A stretch of DNA of 64,000 nucleotides, from positions 2,336,001-2,400,000 of the forward strand of contig OZ244042.1 in the NCBI GenBank assembly GCA_965215015.1. The letters run 5' to 3'. Below the pieces are notes generated by a model that was not told the DNA's origin, did not search any database, and saw nothing but the letters and a program-made list of their open reading frames with translations. This DNA comes from Candidatus Poribacteria bacterium. GTDB taxonomy: Bacteria > Poribacteria > WGA-4E > PCPOR2b. The position numbers were made by a program, and so were the translations under genes. Below are positions 24,956 to 53,425 of this stretch, piece after piece. The stretch's first letter is position 1. The number at the start of each line of letters is the position of its first letter.

Positions 24956-26113
24956 TTACCGAAATCTTGCAATCTAAAGTCCCGTCTTTTAAGGCAGAGA
25001 TACATATTGGCAAAGCGTGTTGATGGCAGCCTGTTAGGTGATACCTAACAGGCGTAGAAAACGTTGAATTTGCAGGTGAAATGGGGTACAATTGGCTTGT
25101 CTTTCGCGAGGGAATGCTACACCGTCGCTTGGCAGTATCCCTCACATTCTACAGCATAGAGAAAGACATTCCCATGAAACCTATAAATTCAAATGCTATC
25201 ACAATCATGGCAATCGAGAACTACATAAGCAAATAGGAACCTATGTGCATATCTACAATCACTGTATTGCGCTTCATAGACGCGCTCCTGCCAAAAAACA
25301 GATGATGCGTCCTTTCACGAAACTCAAACAGTTGTCCCAATATGCTCACGGTATGAACTTGGTGGCCCCACGGCGATTCAAGACGTAATAGCGCGAATAG
25401 ACAAAGGCTAGCAGTAATTCTTCCGCAACCTGAGTATAGCCACGACGGGTAAAAGCGGGGGCTTCGACTTCGGGTTAACAACCTATCTCCCTGTCTTAGG
25501 TGCTAACGATGTAGAGTCGCCACAGTTCCTCAAACGGAGTTGCAAAGTTGTCAAGCAAACGTCAAAACGGCATTCATGCCCAAAGAAACGAAGTGGCAAT
25601 TGTGAACAGACAAGACGCAAGCTGGCACGGCAGCATCGGAAAATAGCGAATTGATGTGAAGATTTCACTGGAAACTTGCTCATCAATTCACTGATGCGTA
25701 TAACCATTTATCCTTTGAAACGCTAAACCTAAGTGGCATGAAAAGCCTTTGGGGACGTAAGGTCAGCGATCTGGGTTTCGGTGATTTGATGAATAAGTGG
25801 TGATACATCGTTGACAAAAAAGGTAAAAGATTGCGTGCATTGCCCCGTGGTCTCCGCCCTCACGAGCTTGTAGCGAATGTGGCTTTATGAATGGAAATCT
25901 TGAGCTTCGTGATAGAACGTGGCAATGTCCGGTCTGCGACACAGAGTTGGCTATTGACCGCAATTCGTCGGTCAATAGCCATAGGGTTAGTCCCTCAACC
26001 CTTGAAAGGAGAGGACATAAGAGGGGGTTCGCTGTCCAGCCCTTGTCGATAGCACAGTTCGCGTCCCGAAGGAAGGGGACAATCCCCGTCCTTCAGGGTG
26101 GGGAGTCTGTCAA
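24956..26113 (+). mobile_element. tnpB: decayed IS200/IS605-family element with tnpB pseudogene
   Basis: TTAC followed by left-end hairpin (~24956-25015); ATG 25174 MKTYKFKCYHNHGNRELHKQI-like start with frameshift; CSECG...RDRTWQCPVC...DRNSSVN Zn finger/RuvC-III remnant; right end AATCCCCGTCCTTCAGGGTGGGGAGTCTGTCAA. Confidence 0.85.
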
Positions 26114-43839: not shown

Positions 43840-44083
43840 AAGAGGGGCTCATAAAGTAGTAGGCACACTCGACGTGCCGTAAACCCCATAACCATTATGG
43901 CATATGGCTTGGCTAACGCTTAACTTTCATTAAACTCACACCCCTCATTGGGAAAAAGCAAAATATCCCCCTCCGTCGGTGGGGGATATTGCCTCATCTC
44001 CCGCCTGAGGCCCCTATCTGTATTCGTGTTTTCTGTGTCATCTGCTGCAGCCGCGATTCAGACAATAATTATGAGCACCCCTC
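43840..44083 (-). mobile_element. MITE copy, inverted relative to 42024
   Basis: AAGAGGGGCTCATAA...TTATGAGCACCCCTC; reverse complement aligns with 42024-42265. Confidence 0.82.
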
Positions 44084-44127
44084 ATTTATTTTATGCTAAC
44101 TCATTTACCTACATCTATTATTCTAAA

Positions 44128-44280
44128 TGTCTGAATTAGGATTTTCAGGATTAACCGCTTGAACCCCCTGCACCTTCTGGTTCTGAAAGGATCTAGGGGG
44201 TTCATTTGAACCCCTGCACATTCATGTTCTTAGCATGAATGTTGTAAGATCTTAACCGCTTTGAATGTTGACAAATCCCA
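44128..44280. repeat. palindromic module block 1 (upstream of recombinase)
   Basis: TGTCTGAATTAGGATTTTCAGGA, AACCGCTTGAACCCC, AGGATCTAGGGGGTTCATTTGAACCCC, CATTCATG-N6-CATGAATG. Confidence 0.85.
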
Positions 44281-44292
44281 AAGGAGACCATC

Positions 44293-45294
44293 ATGAATCC
44301 ATTAGCAGTCAAGCATATACCGCTTGAACCCCTCGTCTGCCGCCACGAGGACACACTGGATGAAAAGGGGCGCCTCAAAGATCTACAACCTTCTGGTTTG
44401 AAGCCAGAAGGCTTGAGGATCCTCCGTATCGCTGTGGCGTGGGATGCGTTATCGGAAAACACCAAGACGGCTTATCAGAAGGCGTATAAACGGCTTTCTC
44501 GCCGTAGCGTGGTTGTTGAAGATCTAACGGATGAATCACTCGCCTTGTGTATCTCGCAACTGGACGCCGATGGTCTATCGCCAGCCACGCTCTCACTTAC
44601 TGTCGCTTCGGTCAAGTGGTATTTCAAACATATCATGCGCTCTCCAGCCAGATGGACAACCACCGATAAGCGCCTGCTCACCATCAAGCGTGATACTGAG
44701 AACAGGGGCAATGGGCAAGTCGACGGTCTTTCGTGGGCGGATGTGTATTTCGTGTGCAGGTTCGCTGAATCTGAACAAAGCATCAAGGGCTATCGGGATT
44801 CTGCATTGATACGGCTCATGAGTGATTGCCTGTTGCGAATCTCTGAAGCGGTGGCAGTCAACCTTGAGGATATCCAAGAAAATGCCTTAATCGTCCAGTC
44901 GAGTAAGACGGATCAACAAGGCGAGGGTGTGGCGTTGTATATCGGGGATCGGACAATGCAGATGATACGCGGATACTGCACCGAAGCAAACATAACCACA
45001 GGGGCGTTGTTCAGGCGTATCGTGCGGGGCGATCATATCCAATCCACGAGGCTCACGGTCAATGGAGCTCGCTACGCTATCAAAGAATGGGCTTCTGTCG
45101 CTGGCATTGATGGCTTTATCTCTGGGCATTCGCTTCGTGTGGGGGCTGCGGTGTCTTTATCTCAAGCGGGGGCGTCGGTCGTGGAGATGCAACAAGCGGG
45201 CAGATGGAAATCACTACAGATGCCAGCGCATTATGCACGGGTAAAGGAAGCGGAAAAGGTGGCTGTGGCTCGGTATCGGTATAAAAAGGGGTAG
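44293..45294 (+). CDS. Cre-like tyrosine recombinase/integrase
   Basis: SENTKTAY SAM-like domain, RDSALI...LLRISEA, SSKTDQ, SGHSLRVG, QAGRWKS, PAHYAR (R-K-H-R-W-Y intact); SD AAAGGAG. Confidence 0.93.
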   Translation: MNPLAVKHIPLEPLVCRHEDTLDEKGRLKDLQPSGLKPEGLRILRIAVAWDALSENTKTAYQKAYKRLSRRSVVVEDLTDESLALCISQLDADGLSPATLSLTVASVKWYFKHIMRSPARWTTTDKRLLTIKRDTENRGNGQVDGLSWADVYFVCRFAESEQSIKGYRDSALIRLMSDCLLRISEAVAVNLEDIQENALIVQSSKTDQQGEGVALYIGDRTMQMIRGYCTEANITTGALFRRIVRGDHIQSTRLTVNGARYAIKEWASVAGIDGFISGHSLRVGAAVSLSQAGASVVEMQQAGRWKSLQMPAHYARVKEAEKVAVARYRYKKG

Positions 45295-45295
45295 A

Positions 45296-45394
45296 AAGGA
45301 TCTATCACATTCGGACTTGTTAGGGCTCGCCCTAACAAGCTGTTTTTAACATGAATGTTGAAGATCTAGGATTGTTAGGCTGGAATCTAACAAT
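45296..45394. repeat. palindromic module block 2
   Basis: AGATCT-bounded CATTC...ATGAATG module with nested CTTGTTAG-N8-CTAACAAG, followed by GATTGTTAG-N8-CTAACAATC. Confidence 0.85.
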
Positions 45395-45432
45395 CTTCTG
45401 TTATTTTACCCTTTTTCGCCATTCGTTTCTAC

Positions 45433-45494
45433 CTAAAACAAAAGGGCTGCGCGATTCAGGATTACCGATGATGCAGCCCTTTTTCTGTTTTTAG
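45433..45494. terminator. hairpin with U-tract upstream of the Cys-rich peptide gene
   Basis: AAAAGGGCTGC-loop-GCAGCCCTTTTT. Confidence 0.5.
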
Positions 45495-45531
45495 ATTCTG
45501 TTTTGGGCGGAACGATGGCAATAAGGAGAAG

Positions 45532-45807
45532 ATGATGTTTTCAACAAAAAGACGGTTGATGGCTATGGTCCTAATCGTTGGGTTCTTGGTAGCTAGTTTT
45601 GGGCTGTTCCCACCGCCGGCTTACAGCGATGATTGTTCAACAGCCACAAACAACTGTTGTGCTGCTATCGCTTTAGCAGCCTATTATTGTAACCTATATG
45701 GTAGTGGCAGTGGGGTGTGTGATGCATGGCAAAGGTACGCCGGGCAGAAGTGTTCAACCGCGGCTGAGATATGTGGCTATTCTGCCTATCATCTGTGCTA
45801 TAATTAG
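45532..45807 (+). CDS. secreted cysteine-rich small protein
   Basis: SD TAAGGAG; signal peptide ending PAYS; 59-aa mature part with 8 Cys. Confidence 0.8.
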   Translation: MMFSTKRRLMAMVLIVGFLVASFGLFPPPAYSDDCSTATNNCCAAIALAAYYCNLYGSGSGVCDAWQRYAGQKCSTAAEICGYSAYHLCYN

Positions 45808-45857
45808 CCCTCACTGTTTTCTCCCGCTGTAGCAGAGATTTTTTCCCTTACCTTTCC

Positions 45858-45984
45858 AAAAGATCTTAGGGGTTCAAGAGGTTCCGCGGTTTTAAAACCG
45901 CTTGAACCCCTTCCTCTTAACCCCTGCACATTCATGTTTTAAACCGCTAACAATCCCTCACCTAACAACCGCACCTAACAGGCG
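45858..45984. repeat. palindromic module block 3
   Basis: GGTTCCGCGGTTTTAAAACCGCTTGAACCCCT (45880-45911) identical to 50951-50982; CCCCTGCACATTCATGTT; three CTAACA half-sites. Confidence 0.85.
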
Positions 45985-46023
45985 TGGTTATAAATCTTAT
46001 TGAAACATAAAGGGAGATCGCCG

Positions 46024-47163
46024 ATGAAAACCAAGTTGATACCGAATCTTTCAATGAAGTTGAAAAAATCAATCTATGTGTCCGGTGCCCTGTTGGCAGG
46101 AATCGTCGTTTGTATGTCTGTATTTTTTGGGCTTCGGGAGCATAAGGAGAGGGAACTTCAGGGGAAAAGTAACTTCACTCTCCAAAACAATGGGATCGCC
46201 GCCGCGCCCCTAACAATGCCGCGTGGGAATTCAGAGGAAGAGTTACAGACGCCCGCAGAAAGAATTGTGCAGCACACAAAAAATAATTTTGTGTCTCTGT
46301 ATAGCGAAGATGAACTTGCAACGCAAGAGAGACAAAAAATGCTTGAGGTTATGAATTCGCCGGAGTACCTTAAATACATGAAAAACGCGCTGGAAAAAGG
46401 TTATAGGTTCCGTCATTCTGCTGAATTTTGGGAATCACACGGGTTTCCGTTAGAGAGGGATATGTTTAAGGATGCCTTCCGAAAAGAGTTTCCGACTGGG
46501 GTGCCTGAGATGCGTCTGAAAATGGCGAATCTATTTCTTTCCCAAGAACCGGTAGACCTGACTAACCCAAGCGCAGCGGCTTTGCAACGTCAAGAGGTGT
46601 TCCTTAAGTTTATCAAAGAAGAAGGTCGAAATATAGGCTGGCTGGGGGGACAGTTCGGGATCGATCTTGATGGTGCTATGCTAGCAGGGTGGGAAGAAGG
46701 ATCTGAGAGCACCCCTGCTTTTGTCTGGATAACTGATGTTCAAAGACATGCGGCGAGTATTGTCGCAGCCGCAGAAACGACCGGAGTCGATACACCTGAA
46801 GCACAGGTATCAGCTCCTTCATGGGATATGTCCTCCGTCATGGAAAGCCCCTCTGCATCTGATAGCGAAATGTCAGTGCCCCTCCCCCCGCTTGATACAT
46901 CAACTGACGCCGAGATTGAGGCAGCCACGAGACCTCAACCGCTCGATATGCCCCAAAATCACCGCCCTGATATGCCGGGCGAGATTCAAAGTAATCTTGA
47001 AGCATCCCTGAAATCGCAGTTTTCACCAGAGCAGTTCGATCGGGCGATGTCTACTTTAGAGCAGTATGGACCCGAAGAAGGGCTCCGCCGTCTACGTCAA
47101 AGCGATCCAGACTTTGCCAAGCAAGTAGAACAACATCGTAACCGAGAGGAGGTTTCCAAATGA
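46024..47163 (+). CDS. membrane-anchored hypothetical protein
   Basis: N-terminal TM helix, Pro/Ser-rich linker, C-terminal FSPEQFDRAMSTLEQYGPEEGLRRLR; overlaps next start (ATGA). Confidence 0.75.
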   Translation: MKTKLIPNLSMKLKKSIYVSGALLAGIVVCMSVFFGLREHKERELQGKSNFTLQNNGIAAAPLTMPRGNSEEELQTPAERIVQHTKNNFVSLYSEDELATQERQKMLEVMNSPEYLKYMKNALEKGYRFRHSAEFWESHGFPLERDMFKDAFRKEFPTGVPEMRLKMANLFLSQEPVDLTNPSAAALQRQEVFLKFIKEEGRNIGWLGGQFGIDLDGAMLAGWEEGSESTPAFVWITDVQRHAASIVAAAETTGVDTPEAQVSAPSWDMSSVMESPSASDSEMSVPLPPLDTSTDAEIEAATRPQPLDMPQNHRPDMPGEIQSNLEASLKSQFSPEQFDRAMSTLEQYGPEEGLRRLRQSDPDFAKQVEQHRNREEVSK

Positions 47164-47393
47164 AAGTGTTTATGATAGCGTGGGTAGTGTTTTGTTTCTT
47201 GGTAATTGCGGGGTTGTTCATTGCCTATGCAACAGACAACTTTCCCGGTGTCCCCGCTCCCCAACAAGTTGATATGGAAACAGAGGAAGAGTGTTCACCA
47301 TGTGAGAAGAATCTGAAACGTCTCAAAGAGGCGAGGGAACGGTGGGAGCGTGAGCGTAAAGCCCAAGCCGTTGACCGTGGAGATGCGGAATGA
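47160..47393 (+). CDS. small membrane/secreted protein with CxxC
   Basis: SD GAGGAGG, ATGA coupling on both sides, TM helix, EECSPCEK. Confidence 0.7.
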   Translation: MKVFMIAWVVFCFLVIAGLFIAYATDNFPGVPAPQQVDMETEEECSPCEKNLKRLKEARERWERERKAQAVDRGDAE

Positions 47394-47908
47394 ATCACAA
47401 GCAGAAGTATTTCTACGCCTCATTGGGCGCGGTGATTATGCTAGTTGGGATTTTGGTTGGTTCTATCGTTTCACCCCCTCTGATCGCACAGCGGAAGGAC
47501 ATGCCTGGGGATATAAAGTGTACCTCACTAATAGTGGTTGATAAGTCAGGTGAGCCTGCGATTGTCTTACGCACCGATGAGGCTTTGGGTAACGGTGTCG
47601 TCCTTCACAATCCTGTGGGTACTCCTGCGGTGCTCTTGGTCGCTGATGAAACGGGAAACAGTATCGCTGTTGCCGATAAGTCAGGAGAGGCTGCAGTGCT
47701 GTTACGTACGAGTGAATTAGCGAATCGTGTTATCGTCCGCAGTCCTTTAGGCAAAGATGGGGTTCGTCTTTCTGCGGGTAAAGTTGCCAATCGGGTAACG
47801 GTATCCAATCCTGAGGAGGCAAATGCTGTGCAGTTATACGCCGATGAAGTGGCCAATCGTGTTACCGTTCACAATCGGGTAGGTATCATCAGGTGGCAAG
47901 CACCGTAA
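47390..47908 (+). CDS. membrane-anchored beta-repeat hypothetical protein
   Basis: TM helix then five ~22-aa repeats (VxDKSGEPAIVLRTDE..GN). Confidence 0.75.
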   Translation: MNHKQKYFYASLGAVIMLVGILVGSIVSPPLIAQRKDMPGDIKCTSLIVVDKSGEPAIVLRTDEALGNGVVLHNPVGTPAVLLVADETGNSIAVADKSGEAAVLLRTSELANRVIVRSPLGKDGVRLSAGKVANRVTVSNPEEANAVQLYADEVANRVTVHNRVGIIRWQAP

Positions 47909-47912
47909 CCGT

Positions 47913-48133
47913 CAATCCTGATAATTTGTCTGAATCAGGATGGCTTGTTAGGCTTTGCCTAACAAGCGTCAGGATTAAAGGATTTTCAGGAGATTGTTAG
48001 GATCTTGTAGGCTGCCTATCAGACGCGCTAACAGGATTGTTAGGTATCACCTAACAATCTGCTAACAGACGGTTCTTAACCGCCTGAAGGATTTACCACA
48101 TTCATGTTTCAAACATGAATGTTGACAAATCCC
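47913..48133. repeat. palindromic module block 4
   Basis: TGTCTGAATCAGGAT module interrupted by GCTTGTTAGGC-TTT-GCCTAACAAGC; further TGTTAG/CTAACA hairpins; ACATTCATGTTT-C-AAACATGAATGT. Confidence 0.85.
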
Positions 48134-48157
48134 ATAAGTTTGGGGGAAGATTTAACC

Positions 48158-49011
48158 ATGAAATTAAAAAGCGAAAAATTACTTCTGCTTCTACCAATCG
48201 TTGTTATTGCAAATTCGATGGCACTATATCTTTGGATAAAACTTGGGTGGACTGTACCGACTCTCATTGCCACATTATTTGGGATTGGTACGATATTATC
48301 CTTCGTTTTGATTAATCGATTCTATGAATACCTACAAGACAATAGGTATTTCATAATTGGAAGTGCGATTTTTGTATTTATGGTAGGGATGTATCTCTGG
48401 AGAGGTAAAGGAATTCCCTATATCGGTATATCATTTGCCTTGCTTGGTATGTGTCTTTTATTTATGGTGGTCTTGAAGGGGCTGTGGCGGAATATTTGCT
48501 GTATCGCTGCTCTGGTTCTCTGTGGAATCGTTTTCATCTTTGGAGATAAAGAGGTTAACCAGGCCCCCACTCCTGCCATAGAGGAAGTCGGGGTGATAAA
48601 GCCGGGGAGTGCCGCCGCCGTTTCACGCGACATGGCCGATATGATGCACCGGATATTCCCCTCTGAACAACTTGAGGACCCAGCGGTTCAGGAAATAATA
48701 GAGGTTATAGCCTCCGATTCATTTCAGAAAAAGTTGAAACAACACAATCCGAAGACAATGGATGAATACATCCATTTCATTGTGTCCCACGGATTTACTG
48801 ATCTTTCAGAGGCAGATTTTCACAAAGTCCTTGATGCTGGGTACCAAGTTGCCGAAGCGGATTACAAAAAAGATCTTCAACATTCATGTTAAAAACATGA
48901 ATGTGATAGATCCTTGCCAAAAACTCTGGTAAAACCCCTGAGACTGAAGACGATGTGATGAAACACCGATTGGTTACAGCGATGGAGGAGTTCGGGTTGC
49001 TGGGGGCATAG
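48158..49011 (+). pseudogene. multi-TM hypothetical protein interrupted by a 47-bp palindromic insert
   Basis: About five hydrophobic segments; stop at 48892 lies inside insert 48869-48915; removing it restores the frame (YKAKNSGKTPETEDDVMKHRL...) to 49011. Confidence 0.7.
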
Positions 49012-49262
49012 AGGATTTTATGAAGGATCGTAATAATGTTACGCATTTAATAGTTTTAGACTTAACAATCTATTGTTTTTGCTATTGTTTTTTTTGATAT
49101 TCTATGAGTGAACTTGCCAATCGTTGTGAATAATTGATGTCGATTCTAAGTCGCCTTACCTATAGGAGCCATTTGATGTCTAACCTGTTGCACAACACAG
49201 TTTCGCTGTGCATGGCGAAATTTCTGACTCACCATCTACATGGCAAAAGGAGGTGAGCCTTT

Positions 49263-49448
49263 ATGCCACGCATACAACGCGTTAAGTCTGACTCGCGTAA
49301 AAATGGCACACTCGTCAGAACTCATTTACGGACGGACCCTGACGGAAATCGGTATAATCATCTCAAACCACCCACCCAAAAGCACATTCAAGATTATTTT
49401 GACAGGAAACTGGGAATACGCAGCCCTCGCCCCCGACGGCGCAGATAA
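49263..49448 (+). CDS. small basic passenger protein in IS1595
   Basis: SD AAGGAGGTGA; VKSDSRKNGTLVRTHLRTDPDGNRYN; conserved in second copy. Confidence 0.7.
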   Translation: MPRIQRVKSDSRKNGTLVRTHLRTDPDGNRYNHLKPPTQKHIQDYFDRKLGIRSPRPRRRR

Positions 49449-49463
49449 TTCTATCCGGGGATG

Positions 49464-50348
49464 CTACACAAAACACTCCCTGATAAACCTCTCAAACCCC
49501 TTGGGGCGGCCCCGATTGTTCCACTTAAAACAGGCTTCGGCCAGGTAAAGTGGTGTCCATTTCTTACTGTAATGATGATGCGTTCCGTGAAATGCTCGCT
49601 TGAGCATTGACCCAAACCCCTCAATCGTGTTCGTATGAGCGATGCCTTTGACATACTCTTTCTCACCGTGCTTCACCGTCAAATGAGGCATTAATTCCGA
49701 AGCACCTTCGTAACTCTGGAACTCATCTGTCATGAGAACCGATTGCTGGGGGTTAACAACATCTTTGATAAACCCAATAACACCCTGACGGGTTAAATCT
49801 GTGGCGATACGGGCAATAACCTTACCCGTTCGTTCTATTGCACCGATAACCGCTGTCTTTGCTGTCCCTCTACCCCGTTTCGGTGCAGGAGGCAGGTTGT
49901 CGTCATCATCTTTTCTTCTGCGAGGTTTGCCCCCCAAGTAAGTTTCATCACATTCGATAATGCCTTTCAAGAAAGTGGTGCCCCGGCATTCCATCTCTTT
50001 CCTTATTCGTTGCATCATATACCAGGTAGACATCTGATTCAGCCCAAGATGCCGGGCAAGTTGACAACTGGACAGGCTTTTCTTGGCATCTACCATCAAG
50101 GCGATCCCAACAAACCACTTAGTAAGTGAAATCTTAGTCCCTTGAAACAGCGTGCCAGGCAAAACATTGAAACTCGACTTGCATAGGTGGCAATTCCATC
50201 GTCCAATTTTACCATTTTCACGTTTTCTTGCCACTCTATCACTCCCACAATGGGGACACTCCGGAGCATCTCCCCATCGCACTTGTTCGAGATGCTTAAT
50301 ACAATTTTCATGAGTCGAAAATCGCTCGACAATCTCAAGTAAATTCAT
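49464..50348 (-). CDS. IS1595 (ISXO2-like) DDE transposase
   Basis: CPHC...CHLC zinc ribbon, SSCQLARHLG HTH, ECDETYLGG, KRGRG, MTDE, HTNTIEG, YLAE. Confidence 0.93.
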   Translation of the reverse strand: MNLLEIVERFSTHENCIKHLEQVRWGDAPECPHCGSDRVARKRENGKIGRWNCHLCKSSFNVLPGTLFQGTKISLTKWFVGIALMVDAKKSLSSCQLARHLGLNQMSTWYMMQRIRKEMECRGTTFLKGIIECDETYLGGKPRRRKDDDDNLPPAPKRGRGTAKTAVIGAIERTGKVIARIATDLTRQGVIGFIKDVVNPQQSVLMTDEFQSYEGASELMPHLTVKHGEKEYVKGIAHTNTIEGFGSMLKRAFHGTHHHYSKKWTPLYLAEACFKWNNRGRPKGFERFIRECFV

Positions 50349-50471
50349 ACTTGACTCCTTTATTCATGCGGGTTGAGACGATATGATTATCTCAAAAATA
50401 TGATTATCTCAAGAATACGCCAAAAAGTCAAGCCTTTATCTGTTAAGTGCGTAATTATTTTTGTTCTATGT

Positions 50472-50684
50472 TCATTTTTTAGGGCAGGTGGGTTTCCCAC
50501 TTGCCCTTCTTCTCTTTAGGCAGTCGGTCATCTTTTCGACGGACTGCCGTTTTCGTCCGCTACGAGTAACCATCTTTGGCAAAGGGATGGTGTCAGGTAG
50601 CATACGAATCAGTTGCCCGACAAATCCTAACACCATGATGGCAACCAGAACTGTGTGGGATGGGCTCCATGCAGAAAAGTCCAT
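50472..50684 (-). CDS. small membrane protein, probably truncated or chimeric
   Basis: SD AAAGGAG; MDFSAWSPSHTVLVAIMVLGFVGQ TM segment followed by low-information tail. Confidence 0.4.
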   Translation of the reverse strand: MDFSAWSPSHTVLVAIMVLGFVGQLIRMLPDTIPLPKMVTRSGRKRQSVEKMTDCLKRRRASGKPTCPKK

Positions 50685-50736
50685 AAGTGTCTCCTTTTTG
50701 TGGATCTCAATTGCTTGCAGAGGTTGTAAACCTAGT

Positions 50737-51162
50737 TGTCTGAATCAGGATTTTCAAACGCCTGTTAGCTCTCTGTTAGCGGAACGCTACCAGACGCGCT
50801 ACCAGACGGGATTATGAGATTTTCAGGATGAGGAGCTTGGGGGATTATACTTCATTCGGTTATTAACAGAAGCCTAACAACCCCTCTGTTAGCGAAAGCG
50901 CTAATAGCTTGTGAGGCTTTGAAGGTGCAGGGGTTCAAGCGGTTTTCAGGGGTTCCGCGGTTTTAAAACCGCTTGAACCCCTACCGCGGAACCCCCTAGA
51001 TCTTCTGACAAGAGGCTAACAAGCGGTTCTAAACCTGGTCCCCCTCCTGAGAATCCTTTAATCCTGAGAATCCTGATTCAGACAATTACCAGGATTGTGA
51101 GGTGTTCACTGCCTGTTAGCGCGTCTGATAGGCTTTGCCTAACAGAGAGGCTAACAGACGGT
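50737..51162. repeat. palindromic module block 5
   Basis: Two TGTCTGAATCAGGA modules in opposite orientation, multiple nested CTGTTAG/CTAACAG hairpins, GGGGTTC/GAACCCC modules. Confidence 0.85.
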
Positions 51163-51165
51163 TGG

Positions 51166-51885
51166 CTACGCTTCTTTCACGATTTTTGTGACTTTTCCGA
51201 TGATGGTCATTTCTTCGGTGACGATGATGTGGTTGTAGTTCGGGTTGGTCGGGGCAAGCAGCGCGTGTCCGTTGCGGAGGTAGAGCTTCTTGCACGTCAC
51301 TTCGCCTTCGACGTAGGCTATGACGGTCGTGCCGTTGTTCCAGTTGTTGCCGGGTTGAATCAGTAGGAGGTCGCCGTCTTCGATGCGCGGTGCCATCGAC
51401 ATGCCTCTGGCGCGGAGGAAGAATTCGCCCGGACCGAGGGTGTCTTTGTGCATGTATTCATACCCGACGACATCGCCGGGGTCCACCTGATCGAGGGTGC
51501 CGCACGGGATGTCGCCGAGAATGGGGACCGCAACGAAGTCGTCATCATCGACGGGGACAGCGTGTTCGAGGCGCATGGTCTCGCCTTGGGCTAAAGGGTC
51601 CTGTTTGCGGGGCGGTGTGGGTTGTCGGTCCGGGGGAATTTGACCGGGGGTCGAGTCTTCTCCGTAGAATAGATCACTAATAGTGAAATTTTGATGGCTC
51701 ACTTTGGTTAGGTATTTCGCGATTGCAAACAGTATTTGGGGATCAATCGCTTTGGCTTGATTGTTTACAATTTTGGAGATGTAGGATTGGGGCACGTTGG
51801 CAGCTTTTGCCATTTCGGTCTGTTTGGCTTTGATGCCTCGGTTTTTTAGAGCTGTGATTATTTCTTTGATGCGGTATTTTAACAA
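51166..51885 (-). CDS. CI/LexA-like repressor (XRE HTH + S24 peptidase)
   Basis: QTEMAKAANVPQSYISKIVN HTH; VPILGDIPCG cleavage-site region; ARGMSMAP Ser; VTCKK Lys; IIGKV. Confidence 0.9.
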   Translation of the reverse strand: MLKYRIKEIITALKNRGIKAKQTEMAKAANVPQSYISKIVNNQAKAIDPQILFAIAKYLTKVSHQNFTISDLFYGEDSTPGQIPPDRQPTPPRKQDPLAQGETMRLEHAVPVDDDDFVAVPILGDIPCGTLDQVDPGDVVGYEYMHKDTLGPGEFFLRARGMSMAPRIEDGDLLLIQPGNNWNNGTTVIAYVEGEVTCKKLYLRNGHALLAPTNPNYNHIIVTEEMTIIGKVTKIVKEA

Positions 51886-52111
51886 GATGTTTCACTCCTA
51901 TCTTGCTTCCGCCGTTATCACCATCGGATAATTTGCCGTGTTAGGTGAATTTTGTTGGCAGTCTGGTATCCATTGGCTATAATATACCCCTGATGGAAGT
52001 GTGTAGTAGGCTTTACGAAAAACAATAATAATGGTTTCACTAACTCTTATTATGACACACTTCCGCTGATTTTTCAAGGGGTATCTGGTAATGGGGGTTG
52101 ACGCTTAGATT

Positions 52112-52339
52112 ATGAAATTGACCATTGAGACGCTTATTAATGAGTCGGGGTTCCGTAGGAATTATATCTCGGAGCTATTGGGTGTCTCGGAGCAGGCATT
52201 GTCCTATAAGGTGAAAGGGCGACGCCGGTTTACGGAACTGGAGTTGAGGCAGCTGGCTATGGTGCTGGAGGTGCACCTGCGGATTGTGCGGCGGGCGGCG
52301 GGTGCCTCCCACTCGCGCTCTTCCCCGAACGACGAATGA
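52112..52339 (+). CDS. Cro-like HTH protein divergent from CI-like repressor
   Basis: YISELLGVSEQALSYKVKGRRRFTELELRQLAMVLEV. Confidence 0.8.
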   Translation: MKLTIETLINESGFRRNYISELLGVSEQALSYKVKGRRRFTELELRQLAMVLEVHLRIVRRAAGASHSRSSPNDE

Positions 52340-52349
52340 GGTTGGCAGT

Positions 52350-52654
52350 TGTCTGAATCAGGATTCTCAGGATTTGAGGATTTTCAGGAGAAGATCTATA
52401 ACCTTCAGGTTTACAACCAGAAGGTTAGAAGATCTTGGGGATTTAACTTTCAACGGTTTTTAACCGTCTGTTAGCGCGTCTGATAGGCTTTGCCTAACAG
52501 AGGGCTAACAGACGCAGGATCTAGGGGGTTCATTTGAACCCCCTAGATCCTTAGACGCGAACAAGTTAAAACCAGAAGGCTTGAAGATCTTGGAGGTATA
52601 AATCCTCAAAATCCTTTAATCCTGAGAATCCTGATTCAGACAAGATTGTTAGGC
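52350..52654. repeat. palindromic module block 6
   Basis: Copies of 51113-51160, 44188-44214, 44377-44421-like and 51052-51085 modules. Confidence 0.85.
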
Positions 52655-52671
52655 GGAAGGAAAAGGGGCTG

Positions 52672-52965
52672 ATGGAATTATCATATTTGAAGGCAATCGG
52701 GGTTGGGATTCCGAGCGGGTATACGATAGCCAATGGGGCAATGACCGCTGATAGCGAGCATGTCTACTTTGCAGCGGCGCATGGGAGCGCGCCGAAGTTG
52801 TTAATCTTCAACATGACGGGCAAGCGGATAGAGACAGCGGAATTCAGTATCCACGCCTTGCCGTCGAGTCGGTCGTTTGATGCCGTTGCGATTGATGCCG
52901 AAAATCTGTATCTGCTATCAAACAGCGAGGCGTTGGGGGTACTGGCAGACGTTTTCCCATATTCA
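52672..52965 (+). pseudogene. 5' fragment of a beta-propeller-like hypothetical protein
   Basis: Purine-rich SD; GAMTADSEHVYFA and DAVAIDAENLYLL repeats; sequence character changes at ~52965. Confidence 0.45.
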
Positions 52966-53425
52966 TTGTTGGAATCGAGTGCTATCACTTTATCGAAGTC
53001 CTCAATGGCTTTGTCATATTCACCTTTGCCGAGGGATTCTAGCGCACTTCTTTCAATCTCCTTTTCATCGGGGCGTTGCTGCATATCTACAAACATCAGA
53101 ACTGGGAGTACGACACAACAGAGGAATATGATAAAAAGGAATAGGCAATAACCTGATAAGGTTACAATCCTCTTGGTATCTCGAAGTTCTGCAAGTGCCC
53201 CAAAATAGAGACGGTAAATAAAGAATAATAAACAGAAACTGAGGGAAGAAATAATTACCAAAAAAACAACCCACCAAATAAACCCTTCTATAGAATTTAG
53301 AAGGCTAAGCATACCACGAAAATCGAAAGACGGTAATTTGGATAAAAGGAGGAAGAAATATATCCCGAAACCGATGAGTCGGAGCCTGTTGTGCCTAAGT
53401 CTTTTTGAAATAGGTAATTTCTCAT
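52950..53425 (-). pseudogene. membrane protein with one TPR motif, 3'-truncated
   Basis: Three TM segments then KGEYDKAIEDFDKVIALDSNN; downstream runs into the antisense of the 52672 fragment. Confidence 0.5.

Follow-up and report, generated by a model that had tools for sequence, protein, structure and literature searches.

The complete genome of this Candidatus Poribacteria bacterium is a single contig of 5,943,281 bp (49.3% G+C), and its bases 2,336,001–2,400,000 form the stretch of 64,000 nucleotides analyzed here (hereafter the window; coordinates refer to it unless given as genome positions). The part of interest carries a Cre-like tyrosine recombinase gene (44293–45294, + strand; Pfam PF00589), a gene for a membrane protein with no assigned function (48158–49011, + strand), several copies of a 41-bp module that we call M1, and two types of small palindromes: 25/26-bp hairpins with the arms TGTTAG and CTAACA, and AGATCT-ended palindromes of 36–48 bp (ends AAGATCT/AGATCYT), hereafter P units. 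The region is probably a cluster of nested mini-elements, non-coding and able to form hairpins, that entered hosts already in place, with M1 serving mostly as host. [quoted passage not shown] A preliminary description of the locus had proposed discrete, secondarily inserted units with a layered history, and this view is supported by empty sites in homologues, recombinase paralogues and paralogous repeats as well as by nesting.

For comparison, 40 relatives were used (one genome per species), 19 of them genus mates. Hairpins were searched with the pattern TGTTAG-N7/8-CTAACA, and the same pattern read backwards served as control; a reversed genome was discarded for this purpose, as reversal preserves inverted repeats and is hence meaningless for palindromes. 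P units were collected by BLAST (a strict regular expression had recovered 3 only). To find empty sites, each hairpin was excised with 5 flanking bases per side and the joined flanks were searched against the own genome. The assembly was checked by aligning Logan contigs of four public runs, which cannot reveal rare alleles, to the window. DNA folding was tested for eight units with 200 shuffles each: six of them gave z-scores of −4.1 to −7.9 with 0/200 shuffles as good, the nested unit 51105–51163 reached z −3.9 (0/200 as good), and the degenerate nested unit 50757–50808 folded weakly (z −1.8, 11/200 as good).

P units in two genes and in an inverted copy

The 47-bp P unit at 48869–48915 lies within the coding sequence of the membrane-protein gene and is built from an outer stem of 7–8 bp, an internal loop (3 × 3) and an inner stem of 10 bp (fold z −6.6). 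The open reading frame starting at 48158 ends at a TAA (48890–48892) inside the unit, and, as had been suggested from the sequence, deleting 48869–48915 in silico yields a single open frame of 268 codons that runs to 49011. The 32 codons beyond the unit (48916–49011) remain open, and the stranded tail that they encode (AKNSGKTPETEDDVM...) aligns with the tails of homologues (19/31 residues, 61%, identical to the closest one, L009); the gene has no Pfam match. Seven homologous loci were fetched from six other genomes and the junction was examined in six of them, the seventh (L012) being left out as its alignment reached residue 225 only. The empty site, GATTACAAA joined directly to GCCAAAAAC, was exact in 6/6 loci, which read ...TAC-MAA before and GCY... 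after the joint. In L009 GCGGATTACAAA is followed immediately by GCCAAAAACCCCGG, while the window has GCGGATTACAAA, the 47 bp and then GCCAAAAACTCTGG. Relative to the six loci, no target duplication is visible at the joint and no base was lost; the comparison with related loci that the preliminary description had recommended did yield empty sites. The family is multi-copy and the compared genes are homologues whose orthology is unproven; the reading-frame argument for an insertion is independent of this status.

A highly repetitive region, in which short-read contigs break within hairpins, invites the explanation that the units are chimeric joins made at repeats during long-read assembly. The chance of this is negligible: public contigs from two different studies cover 47962/47963–49069 with 2–3 substitutions and zero gaps, as well as 45266/45267–45909 with zero differences, and since these independent assemblies carry both the 48869 unit and the 45296 unit described below, neither is an assembly chimera. 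Moreover, contigs from other contexts lose their match exactly at 48869 and at 48914/48915, fitting the ends of the unit. A 24-mer taken from just before the 47-bp unit, on its upstream side, returned 0 records in a metagenome scan. The homologues read past 48869, empty sites exist and chimeras are excluded by contigs of two studies.

An inverted second copy of this P unit (45296–45367) begins 2 bp past the stop codon of the recombinase gene and is itself interrupted. Its two parts, 45296–45312 (17 nt) and 45341–45367 (27 nt), are together the reverse complement of 48871–48915, and a 28-bp TGTTAG/CTAACA hairpin (GGACTTGTTAGGGCTCGCCCTAACAAGC, 45313–45340) stands for one A of the P unit; sequence, repeat pair and script agree on this replacement. 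The correspondence had initially been drawn over 48869–48915, of which 48871–48915 holds and 48869–48870 is unmatched to 45368–45369. In genome coordinates, the hairpin h2381318 marks the filled site and 2384871–2384915 the empty copy. A further P-like palindrome upstream of the membrane-protein gene (48087–48125, 39 nt) is 90% complementary to 48877–48915 and inverted.

The second gene with an insert is the recombinase gene itself, where paralogue alignment places a 50-nt P unit at 44373–44422 (AAAGATCT..GGATCC plus a few extra bases; fold z −4.1) that replaces CA. It adds a net 48 nt, i.e., 16 codons in frame, which 3/3 aligned paralogues are without, and another paralogue at genome 3847736 has a different palindromic insert of 51 nt, also in frame. 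Upstream of the gene stands a composite P unit (44187–44254), with AGGATCT...AGATCTT ends around two hairpins, GGGGTTCAnnnTGAACCCC and CACATTCATGTT..CATGAATGTTG, so that this recombinase copy is bracketed by P units 39 bp before its start and 2 bp after its stop. Two more P units were found by repeat search at 52390–52437 (inner stem CCTTCAGG/CCAGAAGG; fold z −6.9) and 52516–52553 (inner stem GGGGGTTCA/TGAACCCCC; fold z −7.4). The units at 44377, 48869, 52390 and 52516 have AGATCT/GGATCT-type ends in common, as noticed earlier; their inner hairpins were at that time regarded as unrelated, which does not hold for 44377/52390 versus 48869, because the differences between these inner stems are compensated (CATTCATG/CATGAATG versus CCTTCTGG/CCAGAAGG). 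Elsewhere in the genome P units are split by M1 (1821800 and 4741825) or by hairpins that are themselves split (8687 and 2865330), from which a layered history follows.

The TGTTAG hairpin family and its hosts

The genome contains 54 TGTTAG-N7/8-CTAACA hairpins, while the backwards control gives 2, and with any spacing of 0–14 the TGTTAG...CTAACA order occurs 59 times and the inverse arm order 4 times. Among all 4096 hexamers in this arrangement TGTTAG ranks third (mean 1.0, sd 3.3); further hairpin families are even commoner at the same spacing, namely TCCCCC...GGGGGA (151), GTCGAG...CTCGAC (52) and GAGTTT...AAACTC (34). The family grows to about 70 members when one mismatch per core is tolerated. 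Stop-to-stop frames of at least 150 aa contain 0/54 hairpins though they cover 83% of the genome. One hairpin (45373–45392) is part of a conserved leader and was set aside, leaving 53 for analysis.

In these 53 copies, three positions outside the core and two inside were paired well above shuffles, with several pair types each, and the third inner position showed no pairing. At four covarying pair positions the numbers of paired copies (shuffle mean; maximum) were 40/53 (26; 37), 29/53 (14.5; 23), 42/53 (24.5; 36) and 43/53 (19; 30), exceeding all 2000 shuffles. With the flanking and inner positions paired, the unit is a 25/26-bp palindrome of 11-bp arms plus a 3/4-nt centre and the consensus GNY-TGTTAG-SN-(NNN)-NS-CTAACA-RNC. 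Positions −1 to −3 are paired and −4 to −10 are without a conserved word; CGTC precedes the core in a few copies only, and is paired there.

Hairpin-free paralogues that span the junction were found for 14/54 hairpins, and because some of these copy one event, we count at least 7 independent host sites. The inserts measure 27–32 bp and replace 0–5 target bases, with no target duplication at any of these insertions. The hosts (joints marked by ^) are either arm of the P unit (CATTC^ATG), a related palindrome (CCTTC^TG^GTT), two sites in M1 (site 1, GGAT^TY^TCAGG; site 2, TTTT^CA^GGATT), dead TnpB elements in their 3′ regions (GGGATTCT^CG^CCCATT and CACTTT^AGT^GGATAG) and a further repeat with a clean 29-bp insertion (GGCTACA^TC).

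M1 (TGTCTGAATCAGGATTnnCAGGATTnnAGGATTnnCAGGA) has 126 copies in the genome, including those at 44128, 47927, 50737, 51045, 52350 and 52603 of the window, and bounds units of ~100–150 bp that stand as tandem arrays and inverted pairs, for which reason it looks like the terminal repeat of a MITE family common to the whole bacterial family. The copy at 47927–47993 (+ strand; TGTCTGAATCAGGA...) is split at 47942–47968 by a 27-bp hairpin (GGCTTGTTAGGCTTTGCCTAACAAGCG) replacing TY, and that at 50737–50830 (+ strand) is split at 50757–50808 by a 52-bp nested double hairpin, while 52350–52390 (+ strand) is intact, all three as originally reported and now confirmed by module comparison. Loose ends of contigs fall at 52349/52350 and 52389/52390 around the intact copy. 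Two other uninterrupted copies lie on the − strand, at 51045–51086, where contigs from other contexts end exactly at both bounds, and at 52603–52643. A joint 51086>44035 seen in two runs was considered as a circle junction and rejected, since 44040–44084 is the usual flank of M1-ended repeats and the joint is read as another copy of such a repeat. Nesting of one TGTTAG hairpin in the centre of another, first noticed near 51111–51160, was located at 51112–51160 by repeats and folding, and a second nested double hairpin lies at 52464–52514.

Across the family, the 6-bp core stays constant while the outer triplets and centres around it reassort, and in identical contexts hairpins may be the same except for the 7-nt centre. 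For instance, at M1 site 1 the centre is GCTTTGC or CGGAACG (47946–47964 versus genome 2886242), two flipped pairs plus one loop base, and the nested composite shows such a swap likewise (52464–52514 versus 50759–50808). Neighbouring hairpins are spaced 23, 36, 55, 81 or 104 bp apart, with no fixed spacing seen, and their near-perfect palindromes hide orientation. The reassortment would suit an origin without any dedicated enzyme, in which DNA synthesis halts at a host palindrome, continues on another hairpin as template and then goes back (copy-choice), and where switching inside one hairpin keeps the arms complementary. Intrastrand template switching perfects quasi-palindromes in Escherichia coli and would yield covariation without selection. 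Imprecise joints that cost 0–5 target bases, unit ends that vary, missing target duplications, hosts that are mostly hairpin-forming repeats, and different centres in the same context all fit this process. However, first insertions at 7 unrelated sites would need an ectopic template and microhomology, none of which was seen at the joints, the constant TGTTAG core is easier to explain with a core-reading protein, and the clean 47-bp and 29-bp insertions look like discrete units, so that we regard copy-choice as a rather doubtful sole origin.

M1 was present in 19/19 genus mates (416 copies; 472 across the 40 relatives). Hairpin-filled M1 site 1 occurred in 3 copies here and in none of the 472 M1 copies of relatives. 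Hairpin counts in the relatives were 0–7 (controls 0–7), with one exception of 15 (n = 40); this genome, G018, was rejected as a second expansion, as 10 of its 11 fetched hairpins belong to a larger repeat that was amplified there and carries a single hairpin. An orthologous intergenic site has ~125 bp extra here, comprising a hairpin inside a larger repeat, and absent from 5 genus mates. One exact hairpin 19-mer gave 14 records in unrelated contexts in a metagenome scan, and 11 Poribacteria stretches plus 4 singletons in other phyla among species-representative genomes, which is about chance level.

The palindromes could alternatively serve the host, as operators, terminators, RNA stems or recombination sites, and the copies lacking them would have lost them by deletion. 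A TGTTAG stem does belong to a genus-wide leader upstream of a small peptide gene (the stem at 45373–45392 set aside above), and in some TnpB 3′ regions the position of the hairpin is fixed, as could be expected of a native RNA stem. Against this, the two coding frames together with 6 and 3 homologues that are unfilled show that the units were gained and not lost, M1 site 1 is filled in only 3 copies here and in 0/472 copies of relatives, the covariation argues against a simple dimer-binding operator, and Rfam searches of 44000–53000 gave no family near threshold (four weak matches were at chance level). For the inserted copies this explanation is largely refuted, and overall we judge it very improbable. 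The leader itself (45370–45608) precedes the gene of a 91-aa cysteine-rich secreted peptide (45532–45807), begins with the TGTTAG...CTAACA stem around an 8-nt loop, and contains a terminator-like GGGCTGC...GCAGCCC hairpin followed by a T-run. Genomes throughout the genus have several copies of it each, at times in arrays every ~2–2.4 kb; it has no Rfam match and may be an undescribed cis-regulatory RNA.

Further hairpins of the window include TGTTAGGTATCACCTAACA (48038–48056), within a series of complete and half hairpins (47995–48075), and TGTTAGGTGATACCTAACA (25032–25050), ~0.8 kb from a broken TnpB remnant (25827–25976). Between 51166 and 52339 a divergent, single-copy pair encodes a CI/LexA-like repressor (HTH_3 and Peptidase_S24, − strand) and a small HTH protein (+ strand); it is framed by M1 modules and nested hairpins and may be a prophage or island remnant. 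The products of 46000–47908 and 48158–49011 belong to multi-copy families, membrane or secreted and without Pfam match, which in relatives are arrayed beside recombinase genes. An intact IS1595-family transposase gene (49464–50348, − strand; Pfam DDE_Tnp_IS1595 and zinc ribbon) has a 96%-identical copy at genome 5411982 and fragments elsewhere. Public contigs also revealed an 11-nt insertion at 50897 (two studies), in the loop of the hairpin TGTTAGCG...CGCTAATAG, and a 15-nt in-frame, duplication-like insertion at 46502 (one run), in the 46000 gene.

Candidate movers

Hairpin shape, extragenic location and the absence of target duplication are also features of repetitive extragenic palindromic (REP) elements, and the units could be fossils of REP-like elements that were moved on single-stranded DNA by an HUH transposase (Y1, RAYT/IS200-type) since decayed. 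The preliminary description had pointed to a RAYT/HUH transposase flanked by the motifs, which was not found: a Y1_Tnp search of the own genome gave 2 matches, both broken and neither hairpin-flanked, and none of 30 Y1 loci fetched from relatives had a hairpin within 1.5 kb, their hexamer density being at background. Relatives with 2–11 Y1 matches, many of them intact, nevertheless have background hairpin counts. After this search of the genome and the 40 relatives, RAYT/HUH was rejected as present mover. There is also no conserved unpaired GTAG/CGTC tag in the hairpins. In favor of past HUH activity, a TGTTAG-like hairpin occupies one place of the 3′ region in 6/19 broken TnpB remnants (none there in the others), and 4/53 hairpins lie within 200 nt upstream of the end of a TnpB-type element, where 0.1 would be expected; in addition, CGTC-type REPs are likewise reported as having no dedicated transposase (PMC3733652). 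Altogether, we consider such a fossil origin quite unlikely. TnpB debris is instead read as one more tolerant host, with no pointer to a mover, and the hairpin as a constant subterminal part of IS200/IS605 ends was rejected given its presence in 6/19 TnpB 3′ regions only. All 19 TnpB (Cas12f1-like_TNB) matches, the window case at 25827–25976 included, lie in open frames of 39–109 aa, by which the IS605-type elements of this genome appear dead; their 3′ regions, ending ...GGGAGTACGTCAA, persist as a conserved repeat family.

The other candidate is the Cre-like recombinase. For the product of 44293–45294, the best solved relative is Cre, to which the C-terminal motif residues H, R, W and Y align, and NCBIfam gave Xer-type models only (XerD/XerA/XerC), all far below cut-offs. 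The Cre-like family has 1–10 copies in Poribacteria, but a subfamily with >80% identity (6–7 copies, two of them intact, at 44293–45294 of the window and at genome 6759–7730) occurs in this genome only, the best match in relatives reaching 62%. A hairpin lies within 5 kb in 5/7 loci of the subfamily, versus 0/8 distant recombinase loci, and 5/7 has a probability of ~0.0004 under random placement of the 37 hairpin clusters. Beside these clusters the commonest gene families are common metabolic genes, and no enzyme is conspicuous except the recombinase (4 clusters). Tyrosine recombinases perform conservative recombination and leave no target duplication. It is therefore possible, though we hold this tentatively, that the subfamily amplified only here inserts the units conservatively and without duplication, and the recombinase is the best, if weak, candidate mover.

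Several observations weigh against this reading. Most hairpins (42/53) have no gene of the recombinase subfamily within 5 kb, these genes have been hit too (one in-frame insert and several truncated copies), and the co-localization could simply reflect the accumulation of both hairpins and recombinases in repeat-rich islands, repeated flanks being found at 43/53 hairpins but also at 100/200 random non-ORF sites. Two relatives carry the hairpin within a larger repeat without having this recombinase subfamily. Exact joints are the norm for site-specific recombinases and HUH transposases, while the joints here are not sharp (3–6 variable bases outside the core, 0–5 target bases replaced), and no common target word was seen among the 7 host sites. 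With 32 distinct centre blocks in its 53 copies, the family seems old and diverged. Present-day movement is not shown by these data: no empty or new allele was seen in the aligned contigs, and none of the joints listed for the four runs skips the 47 bp, contigs being blind to rare variants.

In the mechanism that we envisage, the units would behave as selfish DNA of the kind known from small repeats of other bacteria (small dispersed repeats, SDRs, and REPs), inserted by an enzyme supplied in trans. Recognition would be by shape, i.e., a folded single strand or cruciform, rather than by conserved ends, because stems covary through compensated changes and only the 6-bp core is constant. Integron integrases and XerCD do act on folded hairpins. 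Going further, the palindromes might be the working sites of the Cre-like recombinases, cut and joined in folded or cruciform form, in an integron-like but smaller system that plants 25–48-bp units in structured DNA, swaps their centres and remodels the islands of secreted- and membrane-protein genes in which they cluster; this extension is unlikely to be correct as it stands.

Significance and comparison with known systems

At 25–48 bp the units lie close to the minimum size of mobile DNA. They offer a second, unrelated lineage in which filled and empty sites are clean, two genes are disrupted, the burst is lineage-specific and a recombinase is co-amplified, and supply a testable pair of enzyme and hairpin; if Cre-like recombinases truly work on palindromes, this would be the first enzyme for very small mobile elements of the SDR type. 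For the annotation of Poribacteria, the units create false gene ends (48158 gene) and extra peptide segments (recombinase), and short-read assemblies break at unit centres.

The SDRs (SDR1–8) that Elhai et al. reportedly described in 2008 from Nostoc punctiforme and its relatives are said to be hairpins of ~21–27 nt with compensated stems, which nest in each other and in miniature transposons and are present or absent between homologous regions. We know of no demonstration of how these cyanobacterial repeats move. By that description, the TGTTAG unit is similar in size (a 25/26-bp palindrome, against 21–27 nt), in its compensatory stems, in nesting within its own kind and other small repeats, and in its presence or absence between homologous regions. 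It differs in phylum and in its variable ends, with the 6-bp core alone constant.

Integron attC sites measure 57–141 bp, have the core words GTTRRRY/RYYYAAC and are recombined by the IntI integrase, and XerCD works on folded single strands of phages. The Poribacteria system resembles this arrangement in having a tyrosine recombinase beside imperfect palindromes whose folds comprise an outer and an inner stem with an unpaired spacer between them, in the match of GTTAGGC/GCCTAAC to the GTTRRRY/RYYYAAC words, and in the absence of target duplication. However, the arms read GTTAG...CTAAC, opposite to attC, the units are shorter and the recombinase is Cre/Xer-like and not IntI. An integron (IntI plus attC) was thus rejected on integrase type and arm order, the attC-like order being found 4 versus 59 times at close spacing.

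Extragenic palindromes of 20–40 bp with many copies, heterogeneous stems and loops and some members inside genes are shared with REPs and their doublets (REPINs) as described in two studies (PMC3116915, PMC3733652), and in the CGTC-tagged REPs, according to the latter, a dedicated transposase does not adjoin either (PMC3733652). The Poribacteria hairpins have neither the unpaired GTAG/CGTC tag nor a repeat-flanked RAYT, no doublets at fixed spacing were seen, and the copies number only ~54–70. Rickettsia palindromic elements (RPEs), as outlined in a review of MITEs (PMC10969869), are ~150 bp long and insert in frame into genes. The recombinase gene likewise gains 16 codons in frame, while the units here are 47–50 bp long and one insertion is out of frame, truncating its gene. 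With MITEs, in the terms of the same review (PMC10969869), P units share 7–8-bp terminal inverted repeats and the lack of coding capacity, and M1 behaves as a MITE end repeat; however, the 47-bp and hairpin insertions have no target-site duplication, and P units are smaller than MITEs usually are. An insertion sequence with P-unit ends that could be their parent was not identified, and no search for a coding element with P-unit or TGTTAG ends was made.

On defined features the units fail membership of REP/RAYT, MITE and integron systems. Among the cyanobacteria covered by one study, SDR-like repeats were not found outside Nostocaceae (PMC5861425). Among the papers on Poribacteria listed in literature searches we found no description of these repeats, which does not prove that there is none. 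The units are a new family in a little-studied phylum, of a kind already known from the SDRs of cyanobacteria and from REP elements.

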